Positions 2,252 through 58,754 of a stretch of 64,000 nt of DNA are shown here, piece by piece. Under the pieces are notes generated by a model. That model saw only the letters and a list, made by a program, of their open reading frames with translations, did no database searches and had not been told where the DNA came from. The position numbers and the translations under genes are program-made. The stretch comes from Candidatus Heimdallarchaeota archaeon (GTDB lineage Archaea > Asgardarchaeota > Heimdallarchaeia > Heimdallarchaeales > Heimdallarchaeaceae), in NCBI GenBank assembly GCA_030603365.1, contig JAUVXV010000004.1, positions 96,001 to 160,000 of the forward strand. Direction: 5' to 3'. Positions within the stretch are counted from its first letter, which is position 1; each line of letters starts with the position of its first letter.

Positions 2252-3781
2252 TCAATCAAACATCGCTCTGTTTTGTAACATTAGAATTATGTCTTCTATC
2301 AACCAATTGTTGACTTGAAGCCACAGATTGTTAGTTATAAAATCTGCAACTACTTGATCAGCTGTAAATGGTTTACTCATTACACTAGGTGGATAATCAG
2401 CTCTATCTCTATCATATGCTCCAAAATTGTGACTTATCTCGTGCTGAACCAAGTTCTCTGCCCAATCAGCTACTATTCCTATCCAACTATAATCACCTAA
2501 TTCTTCAGATTCAGCAAAATGAAAAGCAGCATTCCTTTCATAATAAGCAAAACCGAAATGTTCAGAGGTTTGGTTTGAGAAACTTGTAAATAAATCAAAA
2601 CCATGATTGTCTGGTGATCGACCATATTCAACATCCCAACTACCCTCTAAACCTAGTAATTCCCCTGCTGTTTCAAGAGCGATAGTGCCTACCACACCCA
2701 TACTCACATCTTTAGGATGCCAAGGAAGTTCAACAACTGGTATGAGCTTAATGCCAAAGTCTTTCTCAAAAAGATATGAAGTTTCATACATTGTAGTAAA
2801 AAGATCATTTCTTGCGACTTCTTTTCCAGAAATCTCCCAATTATCATTTAACATTAGAACGAACACCCTATGTTCATATTGAAGAATAGACATATCATCA
2901 AGATACACATGGGTTGAGTTATCTGCATAGACGAATACAAATTGTAGAGCAACATATGATAATCCATCGCCCTCACCAAAATGAATCAGCTGATTCTGTG
3001 GCGACGTACTGTCTAAGATTAAAGACATGTTCGATTTAATTCCATCTATAAACAAATTAACTTCAATTGAACTATTGGTGCTCTCTATTTGTTGGTTAAA
3101 GGATAAATAATGACTGTTAGTTAGATTTACAGTTTGAGAGATACTTATCCAAGTTGAGTTTCCGGGCTCAATAGTCTCAATATTGGTAAAGCGAACACAG
3201 TTACCATCTAAAGAAGGGTGAGTAGAAATCCCCGCAACAGCTTTATCATCTTGTATGTCGCCTTCCCAGTTGTTTAGATATCCACTGAAGTCCCCGTTGA
3301 CTATCTGTTCAACCTCGATTTGGTTAGTAACATTTAGAGAGAAATCTATGTTTTCTTTTATCTCTGCAACTCTATTTTCAAATGTAACCCCAAAAGAATA
3401 AATATTGTATTCTCCAATATTCAGTGCAAATAATCCTGTTGATATGTTAAGTAAAGGTCCCATCTCAACTGAAGCAACTTGTGACCCTCGAGTAATCTCC
3501 TGGTTTAACTCATAGATGATAGAACCTTTTAAAGAATAAGCATCAGATGAAATACCTATCTCTACTGATTTAATAACTGCCTTTTCTGTTCCCTCTAGTT
3601 CTATTTCAAATGTAATAGGAACTGTTTCTCCTTTTATCTTTTCCAAAGGCATTGAAATAAAAATCAATTCAGCATTTCCAGAAAAATAGTTGTTTATTAT
3701 CATATCTGTAAGAAAATATCCTCCTATCCCTACGCCTAACATTCCAATAAAAATCAGACCAATTAAGGCAGTTCTTCTCAT
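2252..3781 (-). CDS. Membrane-anchored or secreted metzincin (reprolysin/M12-like) zinc metalloprotease
   Basis: N-terminal hydrophobic anchor, HEISHNFGAYD zinc motif, Met-turn PSVMS, central NGDF...W beta-sandwich-like domain. ATG at 3781 preferred over TTG at 3802. Confidence 0.75.
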   Translation of the reverse strand: MRRTALIGLIFIGMLGVGIGGYFLTDMIINNYFSGNAELIFISMPLEKIKGETVPITFEIELEGTEKAVIKSVEIGISSDAYSLKGSIIYELNQEITRGSQVASVEMGPLLNISTGLFALNIGEYNIYSFGVTFENRVAEIKENIDFSLNVTNQIEVEQIVNGDFSGYLNNWEGDIQDDKAVAGISTHPSLDGNCVRFTNIETIEPGNSTWISISQTVNLTNSHYLSFNQQIESTNSSIEVNLFIDGIKSNMSLILDSTSPQNQLIHFGEGDGLSYVALQFVFVYADNSTHVYLDDMSILQYEHRVFVLMLNDNWEISGKEVARNDLFTTMYETSYLFEKDFGIKLIPVVELPWHPKDVSMGVVGTIALETAGELLGLEGSWDVEYGRSPDNHGFDLFTSFSNQTSEHFGFAYYERNAAFHFAESEELGDYSWIGIVADWAENLVQHEISHNFGAYDRDRADYPPSVMSKPFTADQVVADFITNNLWLQVNNWLIEDIILMLQNRAMFD

Positions 3782-3854
3782 CTTGTAGTCACTAAAATAC
3801 AATTACATGAACCATTAAATATTCTTTGTATTGTAAAAAAAGAAAAAGAAAAAC

Positions 3855-4568
3855 TTATACTTTTTCTGCAGCTACTTCTGCTTTCTCCCCCATTCTTCTT
3901 TCTGTACCTGTAAGTAGTCTTTTGATATTAGCTTTATGTCTCCAGAAAACAAGAACGACCATAATAGAATTTACTATTAGAGCCCATAAACTATTGTTAA
4001 ACCAGAAATCATTTCCTGCAAATATCCAATATAATGGTGGGGATAATAAAGCAACTGTGAGATTCGAGAGAGACATAAGTTTGGTTGTTTTAAGTAATAC
4101 AAACCAGATTATCATGATACAAATGAAGGGGATGGGATTAACTCCTAACAAAGCACCTGCTCCAACAGCAGCAGATTTTCCTCCTTTGAATTTTAACCAA
4201 ATAGGATAACTATGACCAATAACAGCCATGAAAGATACAAGAGCAAGTAGAAATCCTCTATCAAGTAACTGAGGAAATTCAACACCTGTATTGGTTGAGA
4301 AACCCGAATAATTGTCACCTACTACCCAAAGATAAATTCTTGCCAATAGAACTGCGATAGCTCCTTTGGTCATATCAAGAACCATCGTTAGAAGACCTGC
4401 CTTTTTACCAAGTGTTCTCATGACATTGGCTGTTCCCATATTACCTGAACCATAATCACGAATATCAATTCCACGACCAATTTTTCCAACCAAATATGCA
4501 ACTGGAATAGAACCGAAGAAATATCCTAGAACAACTAATACGATTTCATAAATAATCTCGTTAGCCAT
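3855..4568 (-). CDS. plsY: Glycerol-3-phosphate acyltransferase PlsY
   Basis: GYFFGSIP, DIRDYGSGNMGTANVMR, GHSYPIWLKFKGGK, RHKANIKRLLTGTE: all three PlsY motifs present. Confidence 0.95.
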   Translation of the reverse strand: MANEIIYEIVLVVLGYFFGSIPVAYLVGKIGRGIDIRDYGSGNMGTANVMRTLGKKAGLLTMVLDMTKGAIAVLLARIYLWVVGDNYSGFSTNTGVEFPQLLDRGFLLALVSFMAVIGHSYPIWLKFKGGKSAAVGAGALLGVNPIPFICIMIIWFVLLKTTKLMSLSNLTVALLSPPLYWIFAGNDFWFNNSLWALIVNSIMVVLVFWRHKANIKRLLTGTERRMGEKAEVAAEKV

Positions 4569-4657
4569 AAAAGAAAGAATTCAGACTTTTATTTAAAATT
4601 TGTCAGAAATAGCTAAGACTAGAAAAACAAATTAAAATAAAAAAGAGAGAGAGATTT

Positions 4658-4891
4658 TTATTTCTCAACACAGATCATGGTCATAGTACTACGTACATTC
4701 TCTAATGCTCGCAGATTCTCTGTAACAATTTTCTTTAACTCATCCATTGTATCTGCTTCTATTTTTGCAATTAAGTCATAAACGCCGTAAACCACATGCG
4801 CTTCACCAACATTTGGTAGAGACATAAGTTGGTCGAGTACGCTCTTTTCTTCTCCAATCTCACTATTTATCAAGATGAATGCAGTTGCCAT
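4658..4891 (-). CDS. Stand-alone Lrp/AsnC ligand-binding domain protein
   Basis: 77 aa, AFILIN...EAHVVYGVYDLIAKIEA...VRSTMT. Confidence 0.9.
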   Translation of the reverse strand: MATAFILINSEIGEEKSVLDQLMSLPNVGEAHVVYGVYDLIAKIEADTMDELKKIVTENLRALENVRSTMTMICVEK

Positions 4892-5060
4892 TAGGAATTC
4901 ACCAACAGAATGTATGTATTGGCGTTTAATAAACTTTGTTCAGAAGTGTTTAAATTAGAATGAAAAATTTCAATAGAAATTCAATTTACCAGATGCCTTG
5001 ACTGATGGTTTTGGGACAAAACAGCTGTATTTTATATGTTTAAATATACGATTATATAGA

Positions 5061-5840
5061 ATGCAAGAAGTTATCTTTCCAGAAAGACTTAGGGAACTAG
5101 CTAAACCATATTTCTACAGTGCAGAGAAAGAAAATCCTACCAACACGTTGATTATTCTTGTACATGGTTTTGGTGCTTCACCCACTGAAACACGACCATT
5201 AGGTGAGTTTCTATGCAAGAAAGGTTTCGATATCCATGGTATTCTGTTAACAGGTCATGGAACTGATTCTAAAGATTTGGATAATATTAGTTGGAAAGAT
5301 TGGTATCAAGATATAGAAAAGATTTACCTTGCAAATATAAAAAAGTACGAGAATATATTCATAGGGGGTCTTTCGTTAGGGGGAGCTTTATCATTGTACG
5401 CTGCAACAAGACTAGATTTCAAAGGAGTCTTTACAATTAATGCTCTGTATAGATTCAAGAGAACTTGGACTATTTTTGCTTGGATATCACATTTTTTCAA
5501 ATTACATAGACCTAGAAATTTGGAAAGAGTGAAATGGTATGTGGAAAATGATCTTTTTGCATATCAAGATGATTCAACATATGCAGCATATCAAATTCTG
5601 AAAATGTTAAGATTTTTACATGTAGAAATTAAAAGAATTAAGATCCCAGCATTGATAATACAATCAAAAGAAGATAAAACAATAAATCCACAGAGTGCAG
5701 AATGGATATTTGAGGATTTAAAAACCGAAAAAGAATTTATGCAACTCGATAGAGGAGATCATATTCTTACTGTTGATGATAGCAAATATTTGGCTTTTGA
5801 AAAGATTTTGGACTTTCTAAATAATAAAATAAGCAAATAA
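5061..5840 (+). CDS. Alpha/beta hydrolase (carboxylesterase or monoacylglycerol lipase-like)
   Basis: LVHGF oxyanion motif, GLSLGG nucleophile elbow, QSKEDKTI Asp, DHIL His. Confidence 0.88.
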   Translation: MQEVIFPERLRELAKPYFYSAEKENPTNTLIILVHGFGASPTETRPLGEFLCKKGFDIHGILLTGHGTDSKDLDNISWKDWYQDIEKIYLANIKKYENIFIGGLSLGGALSLYAATRLDFKGVFTINALYRFKRTWTIFAWISHFFKLHRPRNLERVKWYVENDLFAYQDDSTYAAYQILKMLRFLHVEIKRIKIPALIIQSKEDKTINPQSAEWIFEDLKTEKEFMQLDRGDHILTVDDSKYLAFEKILDFLNNKISK

Positions 5841-5888
5841 CGAAAGATATTAAAAAGAATATTGAAAGAAAGCGATGTAACAACAAAT

Positions 5889-5997
5889 GCCTCAATGGTG
5901 TAGCTCGGCCAATCATTGCGGACTTTCACATGCGAAAGTCCGCGTGACTAAACAGGATTATCCGCAGACCCGGGTTCAAATCCCGGTTGAGGCACCA
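5889..5997 (+). tRNA. tRNA-Glu(TTC) with 37/38 intron (about 5929-5959)
   Basis: Acceptor GCCTCAA/TTGAGGC plus ACCA, anticodon arm GCGGA-CT-TTC-A|A-TCCGC, T arm CCGGG-TTCAAAT-CCCGG. Upstream BRE/TATA-like CGAAAGATATTAAAAA. Confidence 0.9.
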
Positions 5998-6086
5998 CTC
6001 CCTTTTTAAAAATTAACTTTAACACCCACAAATAAATTTAAAAAATCCAATAACTTGAGTTTATTACTTAAGATATTTCTTCCCTT

Positions 6087-6171
6087 GCGGGGATTGCCGA
6101 GTGGTCAAAGGCGCTGGACTTAGGATCCAGTTCTTAGTGATTCGGGAGTTCGAATCTCCCTCCCCGCACCA
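6087..6171 (+). tRNA. tRNA-Leu(TAG), no intron
   Basis: Acceptor GCGGGGA/TCCCCGC plus ACCA, anticodon arm CTGGA-CT-TAG-GA-TCCAG, long variable arm, TTCGAAT T-loop. Confidence 0.95.
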
Positions 6172-6303
6172 ATTTTTTATTTCAGATGCAACTTTATGTC
6201 GCTCTTCAATGATGTCATTACGTGGTCTATACATTTTTTTCACTTTCAAGTCACTCTGTCTGTTTTTCTTATATATGACAAAACCAATGTTAACTTGGTC
6301 ATC

Positions 6304-6765
6304 ATGTCATCGTACTCACTCGTTCAGGAGAATCTTTTAGATTTAGGACTAGTAGCAGTGAAGTTTGACTTACAGCTGGGTCCTATGATTTTAAACAACC
6401 ATTCATCTTTGTCAGAAAATCTATTGATGAAGCTGGCAATAAAAGGGACATCAACATTAATGAATGGTTTAGGATACGACTTTTCGAATTCTAGAAGATT
6501 TAGAGGTTTATTTCAACTATCCGAGGATTATTTCGTATATGGATTTGATCTAGTACTTATTGATGACCAAGGTGATGAGGGGGGGTTATCTCCCATAATC
6601 CTCTTTTTGGTCTTTCCTACAAGTTCTTTACCATTGATAGGGTCAAACATTCGTTCAATAGAAGAGGTTCTTTATCATTCTACACAGTCTTTTCTAACAT
6701 TATCAAACATTGTTTCGAATTTTGATTCCTCTATTTTAACATCTATAGCGAATCTTCTAATCTAG
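6304..6765 (+). CDS. Hypothetical protein with uDENN/longin-like N-terminus
   Basis: LVAVKFDLQLGPMIL resembles the hhhhxFDxxxGP start of uDENN/longin domains, followed by a beta-hairpin (YFVYGFDL) and IILFLVFP strand. Confidence 0.55.
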   Translation: MSSYSLVQENLLDLGLVAVKFDLQLGPMILNNHSSLSENLLMKLAIKGTSTLMNGLGYDFSNSRRFRGLFQLSEDYFVYGFDLVLIDDQGDEGGLSPIILFLVFPTSSLPLIGSNIRSIEEVLYHSTQSFLTLSNIVSNFDSSILTSIANLLI

Positions 6766-6913
6766 TAAAAAACAATGAATATATTCCTGTTTTTCATCTA
6801 ATTATTCGATAAAATTATTTTAATTAGTAACTACTTTTTCTTGACTAGGTGAAAAATAACCTATTTATATCCAAAGAAGCTATAAAGAAGATAGCAACCC
6901 TAAAGTTGATTTT

Positions 6914-9190
6914 ATGAGTAAAGAAGAAATTATCGAACCTATAAAAAAAAGGAAATGGAGTTTCTGGGGGTATGGACTTCTTTTCTTCACAGTATTTTAC
7001 ATTGCATTAATGTTTATACTTGAAGCTGCACTTCAACCAAGGGAAAGTATGACAGCAACAATAGTTTCATACATAATAGGTATTATAGGATTAGCAATTT
7101 TTGCAGGTCTTGTCAGAGACAAAACTAGAGTACTGATATCAATACCTATTCTCTTGATAATAGTGTTTGGTGCAGGATATCTGTTTAATTATGTTGCAGA
7201 TGCACCTGTTTATAATCCCTTAGCTCCAGTTTCAGAACGTACGGGAACTCTTCTTGATACGTTTGATGTATTAAACGAAACAGAGCTAGTTGCTAGTTTA
7301 CCAGAAGAATTCAATCGGGAAACTATAGAATTTTACAGCCAATTTGCTTTCGTTATTGATCTGATAATAGCTTTACCGTTATTCATTTTCGGTACGCTTT
7401 CGCTTACGTGGTTTGTTCAGATTTTTACGTCGGCATTGAAGATATTTGTAATATTTAGTATATTGTTTGCCTTGATATTCTTCCTGATTGGGCTAGTGAT
7501 AACACCGTTTGTACATTTGTTATTCTCAAGTTTCTTAATACTTGGAAGTGACCTTCTTCCAGGAGCACTTTATGTAATGGAAGGAATTTCAATATTCACT
7601 GGTGATTTTGGAAGTCTGACGCAAGCGGAAATAGATGAAGCGATAGCGGCGTTTTACAATGCTTCATTTTACTTCAACCAAGCCGCATTAAACCTAGATG
7701 CATTACAAAAAGCAGGAATCATAGGTTTTGCACAAATGATACCGATTCTAGGAACTGTTGTGTCAAATCTTTATTGGTTTTCATTAGCAGCTTTACACCT
7801 GTCCTCCGGTCTAGGCCCATTTGCAAATGGAACATTCTACATAATGAATGGACTTCAAGACGCAATGGATGCAATGAATATAAGTTCATCTCCAATGCCT
7901 CTATCTGTTGATGATGGAAACACAGTGAAGAGAGCCCCAGGAATAAATGATACTCTATTTAACGATGCAATCGAAGTTGTGAATGAAGGTCTATTAATAT
8001 TGGGTGATAGTACAGATTACATTCAACAAGCTTTAGATGATCTAAAGAATGTCTCGTTAGAAGATGTAATAGGAAATATAACCAGAATTCCTGGAATACC
8101 CATAGAAGCTATCGAACCTGTAATGGAAAGCATGACCATGGTTGAAGATTATTTAGCAATGTTCGAAGGTGGAGTAACAGTAATTTCAGCTCTTCTTGAT
8201 AGACCTGAAATTAGTCCTGGTGTGGAAAGTGAATATGCTACTTTAACTCATTTCTTATATGGAGCATACAATCTATTCAAAGCAGGAGATAACATAGCAG
8301 AAGTCACTGCTTTTAACGGCACTGCTGAGAACTTTGAATATTCATATGGTAATTTTTCCATAGTTCAAGACCAATTACATGAACCAGAGATAGAAGCTGT
8401 AGCAACATCAGATACACCTTTCCTAAACTCAACAGTGATGTTTGTTATAGACATGGTTGACATAGGCGTACCTCTGTGTGCTCTAGGCTATTCATTAGCT
8501 ACAAATTTCTTCGATTTAGATGATATGATGAATGTATTCGCTGGTCCAGCAAATTACGAAGATGTTTCTAATTATCCTGAGTTGATCAATACACTTGATG
8601 GTCTTCGGACAACAACAAATAATTTGTCAACCAATGCAACAATAGTAGATGCAAAAATCAATGATGTAGAAGTAAAAGCTTCAGTTGATACCTATGGTCC
8701 TTTGAACGATATTGCACTTACTTTTACATCTCAGCTTTCTGATTTTGGTTTTGTGGAATATGTTAACAATGCAAACTATGTCGTAAATTCATTCTATTTC
8801 ATGTTCGTTGGAGTCATGGAATTGAGTTTCGTAGCAGGGAATATAACAGCTGGTCAAACACAATTTCTTGCAGCTAATTATGCAGCAGCCAATACTAGTT
8901 TCCTAAACGCCAATACAAGCTTAGCTTCTTCCATTTACAATTTTAATCAATCAATTTTATACATGGATGATGCAGTGAATATTGGAGGAATGACGCAACT
9001 ACAAACGTCACTTACTGCTCTAACAACAATTCGTGATAATCTACTAGGACTTCAAGCTGATCTAAACCAGCTTATGGTGTATATGGCTGATCCTGTAGGA
9101 AATTTGACAGACATAACTGATTTGCTGACTGCAATGTTAGGCGTTTTAGCTGATGTGAATGATGATTTAGAAGTCATAACTGCGCAATAA
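6914..9190 (+). CDS. Large hypothetical membrane protein (about 5-6 N-terminal TM helices plus long helical acidic domain)
   Basis: 758 aa ORF with hydrophobic N-terminal third and Asn/Ala/Leu-rich amphipathic helices. Confidence 0.8.
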   Translation: MSKEEIIEPIKKRKWSFWGYGLLFFTVFYIALMFILEAALQPRESMTATIVSYIIGIIGLAIFAGLVRDKTRVLISIPILLIIVFGAGYLFNYVADAPVYNPLAPVSERTGTLLDTFDVLNETELVASLPEEFNRETIEFYSQFAFVIDLIIALPLFIFGTLSLTWFVQIFTSALKIFVIFSILFALIFFLIGLVITPFVHLLFSSFLILGSDLLPGALYVMEGISIFTGDFGSLTQAEIDEAIAAFYNASFYFNQAALNLDALQKAGIIGFAQMIPILGTVVSNLYWFSLAALHLSSGLGPFANGTFYIMNGLQDAMDAMNISSSPMPLSVDDGNTVKRAPGINDTLFNDAIEVVNEGLLILGDSTDYIQQALDDLKNVSLEDVIGNITRIPGIPIEAIEPVMESMTMVEDYLAMFEGGVTVISALLDRPEISPGVESEYATLTHFLYGAYNLFKAGDNIAEVTAFNGTAENFEYSYGNFSIVQDQLHEPEIEAVATSDTPFLNSTVMFVIDMVDIGVPLCALGYSLATNFFDLDDMMNVFAGPANYEDVSNYPELINTLDGLRTTTNNLSTNATIVDAKINDVEVKASVDTYGPLNDIALTFTSQLSDFGFVEYVNNANYVVNSFYFMFVGVMELSFVAGNITAGQTQFLAANYAAANTSFLNANTSLASSIYNFNQSILYMDDAVNIGGMTQLQTSLTALTTIRDNLLGLQADLNQLMVYMADPVGNLTDITDLLTAMLGVLADVNDDLEVITAQ

Positions 9191-50661: not shown

Positions 50662-51687
50662 ATGAGCATAAAAGAAGTCGATGTTCTTTGTATTTGGCAA
50701 CCGAATGACAAATTAAAAGAATATTTGGAACAAGGATTAAGCGAATATCCTCAGGTTAAACTCATCTATCCTCCAGATACACAACCGGAAACTTTCCTTA
50801 AATTAGCACCAGAGGTAGATATTATTATGGGATGGAGACCAACATTAGAATTACTTCAAACTGCAAAGAATCTGAAGTTATTCATTAATCCTGGGGCAGG
50901 AGTGCAGCATCTTATTCCTATTTTTCAGGAAGCCACAAAGGAGAAATCTATAATCCTTGTTAATGGACATGGTAATGCTTATTTTACAGCTCAACATACT
51001 GTTGCTCTTCTCCTATCATTGATGAATAAAGTCATTCTTCATCATAATTGGATGGTTGAAGGACTCTGGCGAAGAGGAGATTCTTTCGCTACTTCTATTC
51101 CACTTCGTAGTAAAACAGTAGGTTTGCTAGGTTATGGTGCTGTTAATAGAAGAGTTCACAAATTTCTTTCTGGTTTTGATATTGAATTTGCTATACTTAG
51201 GCAAGATTGGAAGAAACAAAATGAACCCCTTTGTACATCTGTAACAAAGTACGCCTTTGGTGAATTACATAGGTTTTTGGAAGAAATAGATGTATTGATT
51301 ATAGCTGTACCTTTAACCTCTAAAACTGAGGGACTAATCGGAAGAAATGAACTAAAACTCCTTGGAAAAAACAGTTTCCTTGTTAACGTTGGAAGAGGAT
51401 CTGTTATTGATGAGGCAAGCTTATACCAAGCTTTGAAAGAGAAAGAGATTGCTGGAGCAGCAATAGATGTATGGTATAATTATCAACCTGATGAATACGA
51501 ACAAGGAAAGAAATTCCCATCCAGTCAGCCGTTTTATTCTCTAGATAATGTTGTTCTATCCCCACACAGAGGTGCTTCTCCTATGGGAAATCTAAAAAGA
51601 TGGGATGAGCAGATAGAAAATATTAGCCGTTTTGCAAGAGGGGAAAAAGAGTTTATTAACATGGTTAATTTGGAGGAAGGCTACTAG
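50662..51687 (+). CDS. D-isomer-specific 2-hydroxyacid dehydrogenase
   Basis: GLLGYGAV, VPLTSKT, LVNVGRG, AAIDVW, SPHRG. Confidence 0.92.
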   Translation: MSIKEVDVLCIWQPNDKLKEYLEQGLSEYPQVKLIYPPDTQPETFLKLAPEVDIIMGWRPTLELLQTAKNLKLFINPGAGVQHLIPIFQEATKEKSIILVNGHGNAYFTAQHTVALLLSLMNKVILHHNWMVEGLWRRGDSFATSIPLRSKTVGLLGYGAVNRRVHKFLSGFDIEFAILRQDWKKQNEPLCTSVTKYAFGELHRFLEEIDVLIIAVPLTSKTEGLIGRNELKLLGKNSFLVNVGRGSVIDEASLYQALKEKEIAGAAIDVWYNYQPDEYEQGKKFPSSQPFYSLDNVVLSPHRGASPMGNLKRWDEQIENISRFARGEKEFINMVNLEEGY

Positions 51688-52261
51688 AATTTTTCCAAGT
51701 AGTATATTTCTTATTAAAGATTTTAACAAAAGGAAAAGCAAGCGAATAAATAAACAACTCAAAGAGGAAAGATCCTTTTTCAGGGGGTAAACCCTTTAAT
51801 CTACTCTCAAATGCATCTAAGGTGTTTCCTAAGAGATTTCCCATTGTAATCATTTCAATAAAAAGCTGAATATCTTTAGCTTTTTCTTCTCCATAAAATT
51901 CCAGAACCTTTTGCCATGCTTCAGTTGTATTTTTTCCTTCAGCTTCTGCATAATACTGAGCATAAGCTAAAGCTACAACTTCTTCAGGATCACAGGAACT
52001 GAAATCATTAATCATTATTTGCTCTATTTCTTCTTCACTGCATCCTATATCAAGTGCTGATTTAGTGTGACCCCACTCACAATATCTACAACCATTAACA
52101 GCTGTTACTGTTAGAATTATGCGTTTTTCAAATTGTGGACTAATACGACCTGCTTTCTTTGTTTCTCGAATCAAAGGTGTTTTTTTTATCATTCGAAATA
52201 TATCTTGAAAGAAACTTTTGAATGTGTATGATCTTTTTTTGAAATATTGAGTACCATACAT
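51665..52261 (-). CDS. AhpD/carboxymuconolactone decarboxylase family protein
   Basis: VTAVNGCRYCEWGH, ALAYAQ, GNLLGNT. Confidence 0.85.
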   Translation of the reverse strand: MYGTQYFKKRSYTFKSFFQDIFRMIKKTPLIRETKKAGRISPQFEKRIILTVTAVNGCRYCEWGHTKSALDIGCSEEEIEQIMINDFSSCDPEEVVALAYAQYYAEAEGKNTTEAWQKVLEFYGEEKAKDIQLFIEMITMGNLLGNTLDAFESRLKGLPPEKGSFLFELFIYSLAFPFVKIFNKKYTTWKNSSSLPPN

Positions 52262-52356
52262 TGAGAGAAATTTGAAACACAAGATAAAAACATCGCTATT
52301 TAGTAAAAATCATTCAATAATCAGAACTGAAATGAAAAAGAAAAGAAAAAAGAGTG

Positions 52357-53397
52357 TTAAATTTCTGGAAAATGGCAAGCAATATAGTGATTAGGTTCTA
52401 CTTCCTCAAGATCAGGAGTTACTTTAGAACAGATTTCTTGTACTTTGTAACATCTTGGATGGAATGGACATCCTGAGGGAGGATTAATTGGACTTGGAAC
52501 GTCTCCTTCCAGAATAATACGATCCATTTTCAGACGAGGATCTGTACGGGGAATAGCTGAAAGCAGTGAAACCGAATATGGGTGTCCTGTCTTTCGGAAT
52601 AATTCACCTGTTGGAGACATTTCCATTATTTTTCCAAGATACATTACTGCTACCCTATCTGAAACATGTTTGATAACACTGAGATCATGTGCAATAAACA
52701 TGAAAGTTAGATCGAAATCTCCCTGCAAGTCGTGTAATAGGTTCAGGATTTGTGCCTGTACTGAAACATCTAGAGCAGATACGGGTTCATCTAACAAAAT
52801 AACTTCAGGATGAATAGCTAATGCTCTTGCAATTCCTAATCTCTGTCTTTGCCCACCACTAAATTCGTGAGGATATCTTAAAGCATGATAATCTTCTAAT
52901 CCTACTTTAGCAAGCATTTCGAGAACCCTAGCTTCCTTTTCTTCATATAACATGTCTGGAAAATGTATGTCAAAGGGTTCTTTGATTAGATCAAGAACCA
53001 TTCTTCTTGGATTCAAACTGGAATAGGGATCTTGGAATACCATCTGAAGCTGTCTTTTAACTGTAAGTTCTTCTTCCCTAGTCATAGGTTGAAAAATATC
53101 TATTCCTTTGAAATAAACTGATCCTTCAGTTGGTTTTTCAAGCTTAACTGTAACTTTTGCAGTTGTACTTTTTCCACAACCTGATTCTCCTACAAGACCA
53201 AGAGTTTCACCTTTATTGAGGAAAAGGTTTACTCCATCTACAGCTTTTATGTGAGCTACAACTCGAGAAAATAAGATAGATTGTTGGCTAACTGGGAACC
53301 ATTTTTTCATGTTATCAATAGTAATAATTGGTTGAGTCTTTGCATCCCAGCTGGAGAATAGATCAATAGTCTCATATTCTTCAAATGTTGATGCCAT
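52357..53397 (-). CDS. oppF: Oligopeptide/dipeptide ABC transporter ATP-binding subunit
   Basis: GESGCGKST, FQDPYSSLNPR, FSGGQRQR, DEPVSALD, GCPFHPRC. Confidence 0.95.
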   Translation of the reverse strand: MASTFEEYETIDLFSSWDAKTQPIITIDNMKKWFPVSQQSILFSRVVAHIKAVDGVNLFLNKGETLGLVGESGCGKSTTAKVTVKLEKPTEGSVYFKGIDIFQPMTREEELTVKRQLQMVFQDPYSSLNPRRMVLDLIKEPFDIHFPDMLYEEKEARVLEMLAKVGLEDYHALRYPHEFSGGQRQRLGIARALAIHPEVILLDEPVSALDVSVQAQILNLLHDLQGDFDLTFMFIAHDLSVIKHVSDRVAVMYLGKIMEMSPTGELFRKTGHPYSVSLLSAIPRTDPRLKMDRIILEGDVPSPINPPSGCPFHPRCYKVQEICSKVTPDLEEVEPNHYIACHFPEI

Positions 53398-53398
53398 T

Positions 53399-54430
53399 TT
53401 AGACTTCCTCCTTTATCATTGTTCGCTCACGCATAGTTTCTTCACCTATATGAAGGTCTAATTCTTCAAAGTGATGACATGCAACTCTACGGCTCCTGCC
53501 AAAATTATGCTCAGGGGGACGAATACGAGAACAAATTTCGGTGGCATACTTGCATCTAGGATGGAATCTGCAACCTTTTGGTGGATTGATAAGTCTTGGA
53601 ACGTTACCTGGAATTGTTACCAATCGTGTTTTATCTTTCTCTAAACTTGGAATACTCTCGAAAAGTGCGTATGTATAAGGATGTGCTGGATTAAGAAATA
53701 TGTCTTCAGTATATCCTGATTCAACAACTCGACCTCCGTAGAATATGTGCACTCTTTTTGTAATTTCAGCTACTACTCCAAGATTGTGTGTAATGAGCAT
53801 CATACCTAATCCTAGCTTCTGTTGCATCTCCTTAATAATTTCAAGAACTTGTGCTTGAATTGTTACGTCCAAAGCAGTGGTGGGTTCATCAGCAATTAGT
53901 AAACTTGGTTGCAGAGCTAGTGCTCTTGCTATGAGTATTCTTTGCCTCATACCCCCACTGAATTGATGTGGGTAATCAGTTATACGGGTTTCAGGTTCAG
54001 AAATTCCAACTTGATCTAGCGATTCAATAGCTAGCTCTAATGCTTCTTTCTTACTACATTTCCTATGGAGAGCAATAACTTCTGTCATCTGATCAGCAAT
54101 CCTGAAGATAGGATTTAAGCTTGTCATAGGGTCTTGGAAAATCATAGCTATCTCTTTTCCTCTAATTCTTCGCATCTGAAGATCTGGTAATTCAAGTAGA
54201 TTTACTCCTTTGTAGATTATTTCCCCTGAAATTGTTTTTCCATTTTTAGGTAGAATTCTGAGTGTTGAATGTGCTGTCACAGTCTTGCCACAGCCAGATT
54301 CCCCTACAATTCCAACAGGTTCTCCTTTCATAACATCAAAGGATACTCCATCTAAGGCCTCTACTATACCAGATTCGGTGTAGAAATAGGTATATACATC
54401 ATTAAGTTCTAATATTGGTTTTTCGGTCAC
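53399..54430 (-). CDS. oppD: Oligopeptide/dipeptide ABC transporter ATP-binding subunit
   Basis: GESGCGKT, FQDPMTSLNP, FSGGMRQR, DEPTTALD, GCRFHPRC. Confidence 0.95.
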   Translation of the reverse strand: MTEKPILELNDVYTYFYTESGIVEALDGVSFDVMKGEPVGIVGESGCGKTVTAHSTLRILPKNGKTISGEIIYKGVNLLELPDLQMRRIRGKEIAMIFQDPMTSLNPIFRIADQMTEVIALHRKCSKKEALELAIESLDQVGISEPETRITDYPHQFSGGMRQRILIARALALQPSLLIADEPTTALDVTIQAQVLEIIKEMQQKLGLGMMLITHNLGVVAEITKRVHIFYGGRVVESGYTEDIFLNPAHPYTYALFESIPSLEKDKTRLVTIPGNVPRLINPPKGCRFHPRCKYATEICSRIRPPEHNFGRSRRVACHHFEELDLHIGEETMRERTMIKEEV

Positions 54431-54436
54431 TTTGTA

Positions 54437-55699
54437 TCACTCTCTCAATCTTGGATCTAAAGCATCCCTTAATGCATCTCCTAGTAAGTTAAACGCCAAT
54501 ACTACGAAGAATATAGCGAAACCAGGAAGCAAAGCTAACTCTGGATTCGTTTTCAATACTGTTTGTGCATCATTAACCATCTGTCCCCAAGAGATTGTCG
54601 TTGGACTTCCTAAACCAAGGAAAGTCAATCCTGCTTCTGCAAGGATTCCTCCTGCGATAGAGATTGTTGCTATAACAATAATTGGTGCTAAGATATTAGG
54701 CAGAATATGAACTAAGATAATTCGCCTATTACTCGCCCCCAATACTCTTGCTGCATTAACGTAATCTAAATTGTAAATTTGCCGCGTGTTCGCACTTACT
54801 AGCCTACATAATCCCGCCCAACCGAATACACCAAGTACTACGATGATAACGATCGATTGCGGAATTTGTCTCAAGAAAACTAATCTTCCTCTTCTAATGA
54901 AGGAAACAGCTAGAATTGCAATCACAAGAAATGGTAATGCAAGAAACATATCTGTTAATCTCATGATTATTTCTTCTGTCCAACCTCTGTAATATCCTGC
55001 TAAAGCACCTAATGTAACTCCAATCAATACTGCGAGTATTGATGAGAATACTCCAACAGTTAGAGATACTTCACTTCCTGCTAATAATCTTGAGAATTCA
55101 TCTCTTCCTAGTACGTCAGTTCCTCCAGGATATTTTAAGTTAGGATTAGCGAGGGAACCTCCTCCATTCCAAGCATCGAATAAGGGTTCAGTCATTACAG
55201 GACTGAAAGGCATTATTATTGGATAAACTATTGCTAAGATAGTAATTCCAATTACAAGTACGCCAGATAATATCGCCACTTTGTTTTTACTATATCTTCT
55301 CCAAACTAGTGACCATTGGGATGGACTTCTTTCCCTTAGAGTTCCATCTTTTGCAATGATAACTTCTTTCTTAGATGTTGTTCTTTTGTAATATCCCCAT
55401 GCGAATTTGGCGCCAACCCAGATTAGGGCCAATACTACTACGAAAATGAAGTACATATACCAACCTGTTGCTGATCCAAAGCCGACATTCTTTACTGAGA
55501 CCCCAAAAAGTGGTACAATAACTCCAACTACTAATACAATACCTAAAAACTCTACAATATAATTTAGATAGTAATGTTTCCAAAGTATTGCTAGTTTGCC
55601 AACCCAAGACATTGATTTAGGTAATCTGTTTTCTACTAGATATTCGTCTAATCTTTCAGCGAAAGATAATTTTGTTGTTTCTGCTGCTACTCTTTGCAT
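54437..55699 (-). CDS. oppC: Oligopeptide ABC transporter permease with two extra N-terminal TM helices
   Basis: GTDVLGRD, DYVNAARVLGAS, HILPN, EAGLTFLGLG, GDALRDALDPR. Confidence 0.93.
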   Translation of the reverse strand: MQRVAAETTKLSFAERLDEYLVENRLPKSMSWVGKLAILWKHYYLNYIVEFLGIVLVVGVIVPLFGVSVKNVGFGSATGWYMYFIFVVVLALIWVGAKFAWGYYKRTTSKKEVIIAKDGTLRERSPSQWSLVWRRYSKNKVAILSGVLVIGITILAIVYPIIMPFSPVMTEPLFDAWNGGGSLANPNLKYPGGTDVLGRDEFSRLLAGSEVSLTVGVFSSILAVLIGVTLGALAGYYRGWTEEIIMRLTDMFLALPFLVIAILAVSFIRRGRLVFLRQIPQSIVIIVVLGVFGWAGLCRLVSANTRQIYNLDYVNAARVLGASNRRIILVHILPNILAPIIVIATISIAGGILAEAGLTFLGLGSPTTISWGQMVNDAQTVLKTNPELALLPGFAIFFVVLAFNLLGDALRDALDPRLRE

Positions 55700-55714
55700 T
55701 TTTCATCCACCTTA

Positions 55715-58327
55715 TCATAGTTCTATTCGAGGGTCTACTGCCACATAAACAATATCTGTTATCAGATTTCCTAGTAATATTAATATTGTAAGCAATGCTG
55801 TCGTTCCCAGTATCATTGGAAAGTCTAATAGGATCACCGCGCTTACATACTTGAATCCTAATCCTGGCCACGTAAAGAGTGTTTCAGTGATTGGAGCTCC
55901 TGCAAGTGCTGTAGCTAGAAATAGTCCAATGTAAGTAACAACTGGAATTAAAACATTCCTGAAAGCATGTCTCCAAGTAATGGATCTTTCTGAAAGTCCA
56001 TTTGCTCTAGCTGATAAAATATAATCTTGTCGAAGAACCTCAAGCATTGTTGATCTAACCAATCTGGTATATAATGCAATAGATGCAAATGTTAATGCAA
56101 TGATTGGTAAGACCATATGGAGCATTGAATCTAACAATCTTTCCGACACATTCGCCCACCACGTAGACATATTCCCTGACCAGAATAAACTCCAATTCGT
56201 ATCACTGAATACTGGCATGGGTGCTGGTACACGATGAGCTTTTGCAGCTGGGAACCAGCCCAGACCATATCCACTAAATATGTAAATCAATAATAATCCA
56301 AACACAAAAATTGGCATTGAAAGACCTAATAGTGCAAATGCACTAGCTGCTGAATCAATCCATGAATTTTGATTTTTTGCTGCTAAAATTCCTAGAGGAA
56401 TTGCTATTAAGAGGGCAAACACAAATGATGCCAATTGAAGTTTTAGTGTTTCCCAAACTAATCCTCCAATCATGTCATTAATAGATTGACCAGATTGGAA
56501 GCTAGTTCCCATATCTCCGTGAAGCAGGTTGTAAAACCAAACTACAAATTGTACATAGATTGGTTGATCTAAGCCTAATTTCCGCGTCAGATTTAATCTA
56601 TCTGCTTCCGTTACTCTTTGTTTTCCTAGAAGAAGTAAAGTTACTGGGTCTCCCATTCCACTAACCATTACAAATGTCATAACACATATCGCTATGAACA
56701 GAGGAATGAGGGTCAGCAATCTTCTTGTAATATATGTTGTTAATCTTAAAGTAGCAACATTCTTAATCCATTTAATTACACCAGTCTCACCTACTCTTCT
56801 AGTCATTGTTGAATCTGAGGGTTTTTGCCAGTCAACGGGTAAGAAAATACCTGTGAGCATCACAAAGATTCCTATCACAAACAAATAGAAACCTGGTTCA
56901 ATAGTTCCTGTAAGAGCTATGTTGAAGAAAGCAGGATTCGAATCATTAGGATTAAAGGTTATCGGGCTGAAGGTTATCGCATCTTGTCCAGAAATAATCG
57001 CTTCATATCTTCCAGCAGCAATTATCATCGATCTATTCATCGCTAGAATTGCGGCTACAAGCGATGTAAGCAAGAGAATACCACCGGCTATATCGGCAAT
57101 TATACCTCTTGATTTTAACTCTCCACTTTGGAATACTTGTCCTAAAACAATCGCCATAAGAGCAAAGAGAATAGTAAACCAAACAGCAGCTGCTAAGATT
57201 ATTATGCTACTAGGTGTTTCTGCTTGTAAAAATCTTGCTTGTGTTATGTTATCTGCGCTGTCATAGGTTATGAGTCTATAATCAACACTAAAACTATATA
57301 TTTCAACAAGGTTTCCAAAACTATCTTTATTGTAACGTGGTCTCACACTATAAACTTCTAAACCTGTTCCTGATTCAGCCACATATGCATATCCATCTAT
57401 AACAAACAATGCAACTGACTCTGCAGAAGTGTTATATGAACCTGCACTTTGTAAAACAACTGGGTTAATAATTGAAACAATGTGTAACCCATAGCTTGAA
57501 TCAGTAATATAGGCGTGTTCATTATCTATATCTATCCCTTTAACATCTCCTGAAACATCATATTGATTCCCGAATATTGGGACTTCTGGATTTGTCAAGT
57601 TAACAGATTGCAATCCGAAGTTTGCACCTACAATATATGCATAATCACCTTGAACATCAACATCATACACAGGATTACCTGCTTCATATGTTCCAATTAA
57701 AGTTGGATCGGTTGGATCACTCACATTCAAGACATGTAATCCTACTGTTGAATCTACAACATATGCAACGTCCTCTTGAACTACTACGCTATTTACATCA
57801 CCAGAAATACTGTATGTGCCTTCTTGAGATGGTGTTGCTGGAGTACTTACATCAAGTATTTGTAATCCTATTGTTGAATCTACAACATAAGCATAGTCGT
57901 TTAAAACATATACATTGTTCGCACCGCCAGCGATGCTATAAGTTCCTAAACTTGTTGGTGTTGTTGGATCTGTTACATCTACAGTTTGTAACCCTGTATT
58001 GGTATCAGCAATGTAAGCAACATTATCTGCAACAAATATACCATTGGAACTACCCGTTATACTGTAAATTCCAATAATGTCTATTGTCTGTGCATCAGTT
58101 ACATTTACAATAACTAATCCTGAATCAGAATTCAAAACATATGCAAAGCCACCATCATAATAAACTGCTGTTAAATTACCTACAATGATTTGTGTATTTT
58201 CAAGTACAATGGGTTCTGGTTCTGCAGAAGTTGAATCAAAATCAAGACCATACAAAGGTACAAAAGCTGCGATAAAAATAAGAGCAAAACCAACAATTTT
58301 AAGAGAAATTGCTACACTTTTATCCAT
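55715..58327 (-). CDS. oppB: Oligopeptide ABC transporter permease OppB fused to an N-terminal LVIVD-repeat beta-propeller and TM module
   Basis: C-terminal OppB core (YITRRLL, GLDQP, QDYILSARANGL, HAFRN, ETLFTWPGLG, DPRI); aa ~45-330 contain seven AYV/I..GL.hh.V..P repeats. Confidence 0.9.
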   Translation of the reverse strand: MDKSVAISLKIVGFALIFIAAFVPLYGLDFDSTSAEPEPIVLENTQIIVGNLTAVYYDGGFAYVLNSDSGLVIVNVTDAQTIDIIGIYSITGSSNGIFVADNVAYIADTNTGLQTVDVTDPTTPTSLGTYSIAGGANNVYVLNDYAYVVDSTIGLQILDVSTPATPSQEGTYSISGDVNSVVVQEDVAYVVDSTVGLHVLNVSDPTDPTLIGTYEAGNPVYDVDVQGDYAYIVGANFGLQSVNLTNPEVPIFGNQYDVSGDVKGIDIDNEHAYITDSSYGLHIVSIINPVVLQSAGSYNTSAESVALFVIDGYAYVAESGTGLEVYSVRPRYNKDSFGNLVEIYSFSVDYRLITYDSADNITQARFLQAETPSSIIILAAAVWFTILFALMAIVLGQVFQSGELKSRGIIADIAGGILLLTSLVAAILAMNRSMIIAAGRYEAIISGQDAITFSPITFNPNDSNPAFFNIALTGTIEPGFYLFVIGIFVMLTGIFLPVDWQKPSDSTMTRRVGETGVIKWIKNVATLRLTTYITRRLLTLIPLFIAICVMTFVMVSGMGDPVTLLLLGKQRVTEADRLNLTRKLGLDQPIYVQFVVWFYNLLHGDMGTSFQSGQSINDMIGGLVWETLKLQLASFVFALLIAIPLGILAAKNQNSWIDSAASAFALLGLSMPIFVFGLLLIYIFSGYGLGWFPAAKAHRVPAPMPVFSDTNWSLFWSGNMSTWWANVSERLLDSMLHMVLPIIALTFASIALYTRLVRSTMLEVLRQDYILSARANGLSERSITWRHAFRNVLIPVVTYIGLFLATALAGAPITETLFTWPGLGFKYVSAVILLDFPMILGTTALLTILILLGNLITDIVYVAVDPRIEL

Positions 58328-58676
58328 AATTTATCACTCGAGTGGAATGAATAGAATCATCTATTCTTTTATAGAAAGACTGTTGAAGTTTTTATAAATG
58401 TTGCCTAGTGTTATAAGATATAAAGAAAATGTATAGAATCTGTATTTGAGTCGGAAAATATCGAAAGTATCAACCAAATTTATTTTTCATACTGATTCTA
58501 CGCTTTTTAGAGTGTTCTTTACAAGTATATCTTAATAATTAGAATGAAAAATGTCTATCTAATCTAATAGGTAATATTATAGCAATCTGTGTTAGATAAA
58601 CAACAATTAAGCTTGGTAACAAAAAATATTTAAAGCAACCTTGAAAGAAAAAGATGACATTAGCCTATCGGTAATA

Positions 58677-58754
58677 GGGGCAGTGATCTAGCCTGGCTAT
58701 GATACCTCCTTGACGTGGAGGAAGTCGCAAGTTCGAATCTTGCCTGCCCCACCA
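58677..58754 (+). tRNA. tRNA-Val(GAC), no intron
   Basis: Acceptor GGGGCAG/CTGCCCC plus ACCA, anticodon arm CCTCC-TT-GAC-GT-GGAGG, TTCGAAT T-loop. Confidence 0.95.

Follow-up and report, generated by a model that had tools for sequence, protein, structure and literature searches.

Textbook type I ATP-binding cassette (ABC) importers are bare permeases, served by a dedicated substrate-binding protein (SBP) that is encoded alongside. The Opp/Dpp importers, represented by DppB (8z1v) and OppB (8z21) of E. coli and by the M. tuberculosis entries 8j5q and 8wd9, combine an OppB-type permease with a six-transmembrane (TM) BPD_transp_1 and BPD_transp_1_N core, an OppC with an OppC_N domain and two oligo_HPY ATPases, and their genes follow a tight B-C-D-F order. 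We analyzed a 64,000-nucleotide stretch of a Candidatus Heimdallarchaeota archaeon (contig JAUVXV010000004.1 of assembly GCA_030603365.1, forward-strand positions 96,001 to 160,000; hereafter the window, to which positions refer unless a contig or locus is given), from the group of archaea closest to eukaryotes. The window contains an oppB-oppC-oppD-oppF operon (52357-58327, minus strand) that shares the core domains and the gene order of these importers. It differs from them in that its OppB bears a 300-aa propeller along with four extra TM helices, its OppC bears two extra TM helices, the locus is without a cognate SBP gene and the NCBIfam scores fall below the cut-offs.

Two other kinds of described importer are close to this arrangement. 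MalF of MalFGK2 possesses extra N-terminal TM helices and a large periplasmic loop, P2, which contacts MalE. Like MalF, the OppB in the window is a type I permease that has additional helices at its N-terminus and, by the docking site, a large folded loop predicted to lie outside the cytoplasm; however, P2 is Ig-like, constitutive and part of another permease family, whereas the propeller is polymorphic and its contact with an SBP is conjectural. Of the systems compared, P2 would offer the closest functional parallel to an accessory docking domain. In ABC importers of the OpuA and GlnPQ types, a binding domain is fused to the permease. A similar organization was found in the database proteins P0216 (851 aa) and P0218 (878 aa), in which an SBP_bac_5 domain (residues ~66-400) precedes a single TM helix and then the entire OppB core, giving a covalently tethered OppA. 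In all of these proteins, as predicted for the OppB described here, an extracellular domain lies N-terminal to the permease and is attached via extra TM helices, but the domain has a binding-protein fold, whereas here it is an LVIVD propeller that is dispensable in orthologues.

The propeller itself resembles the LVIVD-repeat cell-surface proteins (PF08309; Adindla et al. 2004, PMC2447325). It shares with them the ~42-aa repeat and the predicted seven-bladed propeller; such proteins are extracellular, as the fused propeller is predicted to be, and are common in the genomes examined here. The known members differ in that they are stand-alone or multidomain proteins of unknown function, none of which has been described inside a transporter subunit.

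Architecture and predicted topology of OppB

According to the list of open reading frames (ORFs), the four genes of the operon are separated by gaps of 15, 6 and 1 bp. The first gene, oppB (P0001; 55715-58327, minus strand), encodes a protein of 870 aa, within which four regions were distinguished. A first TM helix (TM1, residues ~5-27; 58247-58315, minus strand) was identified by hydropathy as an N-in anchor before the propeller and is kept in both the long, propeller-bearing and the short, propeller-less forms of the protein described below. It is followed by the seven-bladed LVIVD propeller cassette (residues ~35-332; 57332-58225, minus strand), which is bordered by the invariant junctions EPEPI and VRPR. 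The third region is a family-specific extension (residues 333-530; 56738-57331, minus strand) composed of a pre-TM2 segment, TM2-TM4 and a predicted extracellular loop (428-479), and the fourth is a six-TM permease core of the OppB/DppB type with an EAA-type coupling motif (55718-56737, minus strand).

Pfam searches detected seven repeats of ~42 aa in the cassette, with an LVIVD (PF08309) score of 97.9 bits against a cut-off of 20.2. In the core, BPD_transp_1_N was matched at residues 531-607 and BPD_transp_1 (PF00528) at residues 642-869 (E 2.6e-38), and residues 531-868 could be aligned along their full length with DppB of E. coli (8z1v; E 1.1e-60). OppC (P0002, 420 aa; 54437-55699, minus strand) contains OppC_N (residues 127-171) followed by BPD_transp_1 (PF00528, E 4.7e-33). 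Hydropathy analysis predicted eight TM helices in OppC, of which two (51-69 and 82-100) are extra and N-terminal.

Ten TM helices were predicted by hydropathy in OppB, six in the core and four extra ones before it (5-23, 375-393, 409-427 and 480-498). The OppB core is known from Dpp and Opp structures to begin in the cytoplasm. Because four extra helices precede this N-in core, loop 1, which contains the propeller, and loop 3 are predicted to lie outside the cell. The charges of the loops are consistent with the positive-inside rule, as loop 1 contains 6 K/R against 44 D/E over 351 aa, and the cytoplasmic loop 4 contains 8 K/R in 38 aa. In addition, two N-x-S/T sites, N75 and N243, are kept in all 14 of 14 long forms, and N461 is kept in 13 of them. 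Together, the helix count, the loop charges and the conserved sequons predict an extracellular propeller.

The AlphaFold2 model of the propeller contained 28 strands arranged as seven four-stranded blades (residues 40-328), with a predicted local distance difference test (pLDDT) score of ~90. In the model of full-length OppB, built from a 22-sequence alignment, the propeller and parts of TM1-4 were confident and the core was not (pLDDT <50); the poor modeling of the core is attributed to the shallow alignment. A Foldseek search against the PDB returned only generic seven-bladed propellers (beta-TrCP, BamB and 5hrm, probability 1.0), which gave no functional clue.

The extension is specific to the family. 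The four-helix OppB extension was found in 26 of 30 genomes of the family Heimdallarchaeaceae (f1) versus none of 52 other genomes of the class. It carries two motifs, LGQVFQSG and TFNPND, which are invariant in both the long and the short forms, and TFNPND is located in the loop 428-479. The best NCBIfam match for OppB was Opp2B, with 258 bits against a cut-off of 350, and NikB, Opp4B and DppB likewise scored below their cut-offs. Since every NCBIfam equivalog stays below its cut-off, the transporter is assigned to no named substrate subfamily.

The preliminary description of this stretch, made from its letters alone, had read the locus as an oppBCDF operon with a gap of about 350 bp and a tRNA-Val upstream and an AhpD-family gene downstream, which agrees with the ORFs and the Pfam matches. 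Its account of OppB as 870 aa comprising TM1, seven LVIVD repeats, three further TM helices and an intact core is borne out by Pfam, hydropathy and AlphaFold2, and hydropathy likewise recovered the two extra N-terminal helices that it had given to OppC. It had also placed the propeller outside the cell, where the helix count, loop charges and sequons now predict it to be. Finally, it had not recognized the architecture as a described system, and our search of the literature on LVIVD repeats with ABC transporters, or on propellers in OppB or OppC, found no paper describing one.

Distribution and exchange of the propeller cassette

We surveyed 31 genomes of the Heimdallarchaeaceae, of which 15 encode the long form of OppB, 12 the short form and 4 neither. 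The long form (868-873 aa) was found in 15 separately assembled, species-level genomes, all belonging to one genus (g1), at the same locus and with identical junctions. In a protein database, at least 16 clusters of 868-871 aa, drawn from NCBI, JGI, ENA and Logan, showed the same Pfam architecture. All of the source-labelled clusters are named Heimdallarchaeaceae or Heimdallarchaeota, and their annotation reads merely "ABC transporter permease subunit". A search of the ESM Atlas produced only sub-threshold matches (0.83), including an unconfirmed Chloroflexota cluster that joins a permease to PSII_BNR. The fusion of the propeller to OppB is thus real; it is neither an assembly chimera nor confined to a single contig.

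The short form (567-601 aa) occurs in eight g1 genomes and in two genomes of each of the outgroup genera g5 and g2. Short forms match residues 1-34 and ~337-870 of the long form and carry a linker of ~20 aa in place of the propeller. In the alignment, the propeller is cleanly inserted after TM1 plus "FDS" and before the conserved pre-TM2 segment, with invariant EPEPI and VRPR borders. The cassette was seen solely inside OppB of this operon and always at one site. Neither form was seen in two g1 metagenome-assembled genomes (MAGs), which are 86% and 89% complete, or in the one genome that represents each of the genera g3 and g4.

Fourteen orthologous loci, seven long-form and seven short-form, were examined in detail. 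A common neighborhood was found at both kinds of locus, consisting of genes for a 2-hydroxyacid dehydrogenase, a CMD protein, a pyridoxal-phosphate (PLP) enzyme and an MBL protein and an Arf-like gene. These results show that the propeller cassette is optional within orthologous operons, being present in about half of genus g1. Since the remainder of the transporter tolerates either state, the propeller is modular.

We compared 15 fused propellers with 26 other LVIVD propellers. The fused propellers formed a single clade (SH-aLRT 99 in a quick tree), indicating that the fusion arose once. In a tree of the OppB backbone, constructed from the columns shared by both forms, the short forms of g2 and g5 were outermost, and at least three changes between the long and the short state were required. 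The short form of genome G023 was nested within a long-form clade (100/100), and other short forms of g1 grouped with long clade C.

Substitution rates were estimated for nine within-clade pairs. In eight of the nine, dN/dS was 0.15-0.31 for the propeller, 0.07-0.35 for the extension and 0.04-0.095 for the core, showing that the propeller is kept by selection, under a looser constraint than the core. Between clades, the propellers were 37-57% identical, versus 81-86% for the cores. The ninth pair, G008-G015, was set apart from these ranges as a case of recombination: dS was 0.010 in the propeller versus 0.18-0.24 in the remainder of the gene, and nucleotide identity dropped from 97-100% in the first ~1000 nt to 88-97% further on.

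A second case was provided by G023. The linker of this short allele lacks the EPEPI and VRPR motifs and is similar to the linkers of other short alleles, and outside the cassette its flanks are 88-99% identical in nucleotides, per 150-nt window, to those of long-form sisters such as G017. A simple deletion as the origin of the G023 allele was ruled out, given that neither long-form junction motif is left in its linker. With a linker like other short alleles and flanks like its long sisters, the allele is an exchanged one rather than a fresh deletion. G023 showed no excess of private substitutions, with 2 in OppC and with 8 in OppB, where its sisters have 2-9. These results show that the cassette has been swapped between lineages by homologous recombination.

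Binding proteins and the role of the propeller

Searches for SBP_bac_5 detected no gene on the contig of the operon (contig C14) and 22-23 genes elsewhere in the genome. At the 14 orthologous loci, no SBP_bac_5 gene was found within ~10 kb in either the long or the short forms. Two single-contig genomes, G005 and G006, contain 9-12 SBP genes, all located hundreds of kb from the operon, and in the closed genome G005 no SBP gene lies within ~270 kb of it. As the 12 relatives without a propeller also lack a local SBP, the absence of oppA is older than the propeller and independent of it. Nor can the propeller be what compensates for the absent oppA, as the short forms do without either a propeller or an SBP gene nearby. 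The preliminary description had reported no SBP gene in the operon, and this extends to the entire contig; it had pointed to the rest of the genome as a place to look, where all 22-23 genes were indeed found. Its suggestion that the propeller replaces OppA did not hold up, in view of the 12 propeller-less operons that are equally without a local SBP and of the ~22 orphan SBPs. Its other suggestion, that the propeller recruits an OppA encoded at a distance, may be right.

The 22-23 SBP_bac_5 genes stand against four Opp-type permease sets in the genome, and only the set on contig C2 adjoins an SBP gene. Many of the others form tandem arrays, of three genes on contig C12 (69265-75052), five on C15 (113989-124286) and four on C4 (91608-113556), and further orphan genes are located on contigs C7, C11, C1, C5 and C9. 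The ratio of binding proteins to translocators in this genome is unusually high. Each of the 22 SBPs examined has a hydrophobic, signal-like N-terminus, and a C-terminal TM helix that carries a basic tail is predicted in all of them; in most, a Thr/Pro-rich stalk precedes this membrane anchor. In bacteria, several trans-encoded OppA paralogues sharing one Opp permease are well known. With ~22 orphan SBPs for four permease sets, the importer is most likely fed by SBPs encoded elsewhere. P. syntrophicum, a cultured Asgard archaeon, has an extracellular SBP of the oligopeptide type as its dominant N-glycoprotein, and an S-layer protein was not detected (PMC11284389).

The operon encodes a lineage-specific variant of an importer of the Opp/Dpp type (family 5). 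We consider it probable that this importer is fed by SBPs in trans, and that its propeller is a dispensable interaction module and not a substitute for OppA. The importer would run on membrane-tethered SBPs that it shares with the other permease sets. The propeller would be an extracellular module for interaction with proteins or glycans, held beside the docking face of the transporter, where it would most plausibly concentrate or select tethered SBPs or other surface partners, much in the way that P2 of MalF aids MalE.

Several observations weigh against this reading. The dependence of the transporter on SBPs is judged by analogy, from its family membership. No conserved pocket, patch or face was found on the propeller, the loop-class entropy being 1.0-1.3 bits on both faces; the 56 invariant propeller residues are mostly structural-consensus positions of the LVIVD repeat, and the partner of the propeller may not be fixed but vary. 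The C1-type SBP family (~600 aa) parallels the transporter in its distribution over the genera of the Heimdallarchaeaceae, being present in g1, g2 and g5 and absent from g3 and g4, and is a weak lead to a partner. However, this co-occurrence signal consists of two genus-level absences only, two g1 MAGs with C1-type SBPs show no transporter, and the C1-type family is also present in families f7 and f4, both of which are without this transporter. The C4-type SBP family, for its part, was present in every genus of the Heimdallarchaeaceae. A complex prediction for the propeller (residues 25-372) with one C1-type SBP (residues 30-565), a single one of ~22 candidates and run with no controls, gave "no answer" (score 0.00) and counts neither for nor against contact.

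A role in surface contact, separate from transport, must be taken seriously as a rival, although we regard it as unlikely. The propeller would then act in adhesion, in contact with the envelope or with neighboring cells, or as a variable surface target or decoy, for viruses for instance, and the permease would be its anchor only. Presence/absence polymorphism, recombination of the cassette and a quicker evolution than that of the core are features that exposed surface determinants typically show. LVIVD repeats were, moreover, first described in archaeal cell-surface proteins (PMC2447325), and many stand-alone LVIVD surface proteins are encoded in these genomes, including one kind of ~370 aa with a TM-propeller-TM arrangement. 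Against such a role, the cassette occurs in only one permease, at one site and with invariant junctions, and the mean dN/dS, well below 1, gives no overall sign of diversifying selection.

It is improbable that the propeller is a built-in receptor that captures the substrate, or a polymer from which the substrate derives, and passes it to the pore in place of OppA. The operon without an SBP gene and the predicted position of the propeller, on the permease and outside the cell, fit such a receptor, and the natural SBP_bac_5-OppB fusions P0216 and P0218 make it mechanically plausible at such a position. However, the short orthologues keep an intact BCDF set with neither propeller nor local SBP, and G023 has no propeller and shows no compensating changes. 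The lack of a visible conserved pocket, a fold that is not a binding-protein fold and the ~22 orphan SBPs in the genome also argue against it.

Even less probable is an SBP-independent system or an exporter, in which the substrate would take a separate path made up of the six extra TM helices (four from OppB and two from OppC), with the propeller peripheral to it. All of the orthologous loci examined are without an SBP gene, the motifs LGQVFQSG and TFNPND of the extension are invariant regardless of the propeller, and the substrate class is left unassigned by NCBIfam, all of which speaks for such a system. The core, however, including BPD_transp_1_N, aligns over its whole length with the SBP-dependent DppB, orphan SBP genes far exceed the permease sets, and the sharing of a permease by OppA paralogues in trans is well known from bacteria. 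An assembly or gene-calling artefact is refuted by the single uninterrupted frame, by the same junctions recurring in the alignment across 15 independent assemblies and at least 16 clusters of the database, and by the purifying selection on the propeller.

The reading of an SBP-fed importer with a dispensable interaction module can be taken one step further. Propeller-bearing Opp permeases might constitute a convergent, unrecognized class, with LVIVD on OppB in Heimdallarchaea and perhaps PSII_BNR on permeases in Chloroflexota among its members. In this class, the propeller would dock or sort tethered SBPs, so that a single translocator could serve a large and changing set of them, or would couple contact with cells or particles directly to peptide uptake. 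We offer this as a tentative and rather doubtful extension; if it is true, the long/short polymorphism would tune the substrates that a population can harvest.

What stands out in this archaeon is that about two dozen tethered SBPs appear to share few translocators, one of which has gained a large, modular and recombining ectodomain. Should the propeller organize SBP traffic or tie contact at the surface to uptake, this would represent a new accessory principle for ABC importers and would also inform how Heimdallarchaea feed on peptides. The natural pairs of long and short alleles, such as G017 and G023, are ready-made controls for biochemistry.

Flanking genes and other Opp loci

The two ATPase genes complete the operon. 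oppD (P0003, 343 aa; 53399-54430, minus strand) and oppF (P0004, 346 aa; 52357-53397, minus strand) each encode ABC_tran (PF00005) and oligo_HPY (PF08352) domains, with readable Walker A, signature and Walker B motifs. The C-termini of both proteins (52357-54430) contain a four-cysteine motif, GC..HPRC......IC ... AC.HF, which may resemble the tail of M. tuberculosis OppD that is reported to bind Fe-S.

Downstream, 74 bp 3' of oppF, lies a CMD/AhpD-family gene (51665-52282, minus strand; PF02627, E 1.5e-10). Synteny analysis showed that it is kept beside the operon in 9 of 14 relatives examined, and it may be co-transcribed with the opp genes. Upstream of oppB is an AT-rich intergenic region of 349 bp (58328-58676) that contains TATA-like boxes and no ORF and is bordered by a tRNA-Val(GAC) gene (58677-58754, plus strand).

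Relatives differ in what is inserted between the PLP-enzyme gene and oppB. The inserts found upstream of orthologous oppB genes were NosD/beta-helix proteins, an IS605-type TnpB, a membrane protein without Pfam match or an S9 peptidase. In G008 (L040:5362-9595) and G013 (L043:5346-8650), this variable site is occupied by a gene for a secreted protein of ~650 aa of the NosD/right-handed beta-helix type and by an IS605-type TnpB element. Two clade-C genomes also possess a stand-alone LVIVD gene ~7 kb from the operon (G013, L043:18662-19609; G021, L046:1643-2458, within a frame of ~364 aa), the product of which is 27-29% identical to the fused propeller.

N-terminal extensions of other kinds are found in related Asgard OppB proteins, which are polytopic and add from four to ~10 TM helices. 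The second opp operon of this genome, on contig C2 (51556-59309), has an adjacent SBP gene and encodes an OppB of 515 aa with ~4 extra TM helices and an OppC of 679 aa with ~9 extra ones; the extensions of these two proteins showed no detectable similarity to those of the OppB and OppC in the window. Similarly, BLAST detected no homology between the extension of the window's OppB and the four-helix extension of the nearest Heimdall OppB subfamily. The proteins P0163-P0166, OppB homologues of 692-812 aa from Heimdall archaea and Promethearchaeota (36-40% identity in the core), have ~10 extra N-terminal TM helices in an extension without a Pfam domain. On contig C11 (region 112000-125000; local positions 3578-7490, minus strand), a lone oppB gene (335 aa), with no ATPase genes nearby, is followed by a Pfam-less ORF of 572 aa and an S58 (DmpA-type) aminopeptidase gene. 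In genus g2, a prolyl-oligopeptidase (S9) gene adjoins the short-form operon (L038:11866-13689 and L039:7259-9082), which hints faintly at peptides as the substrates.

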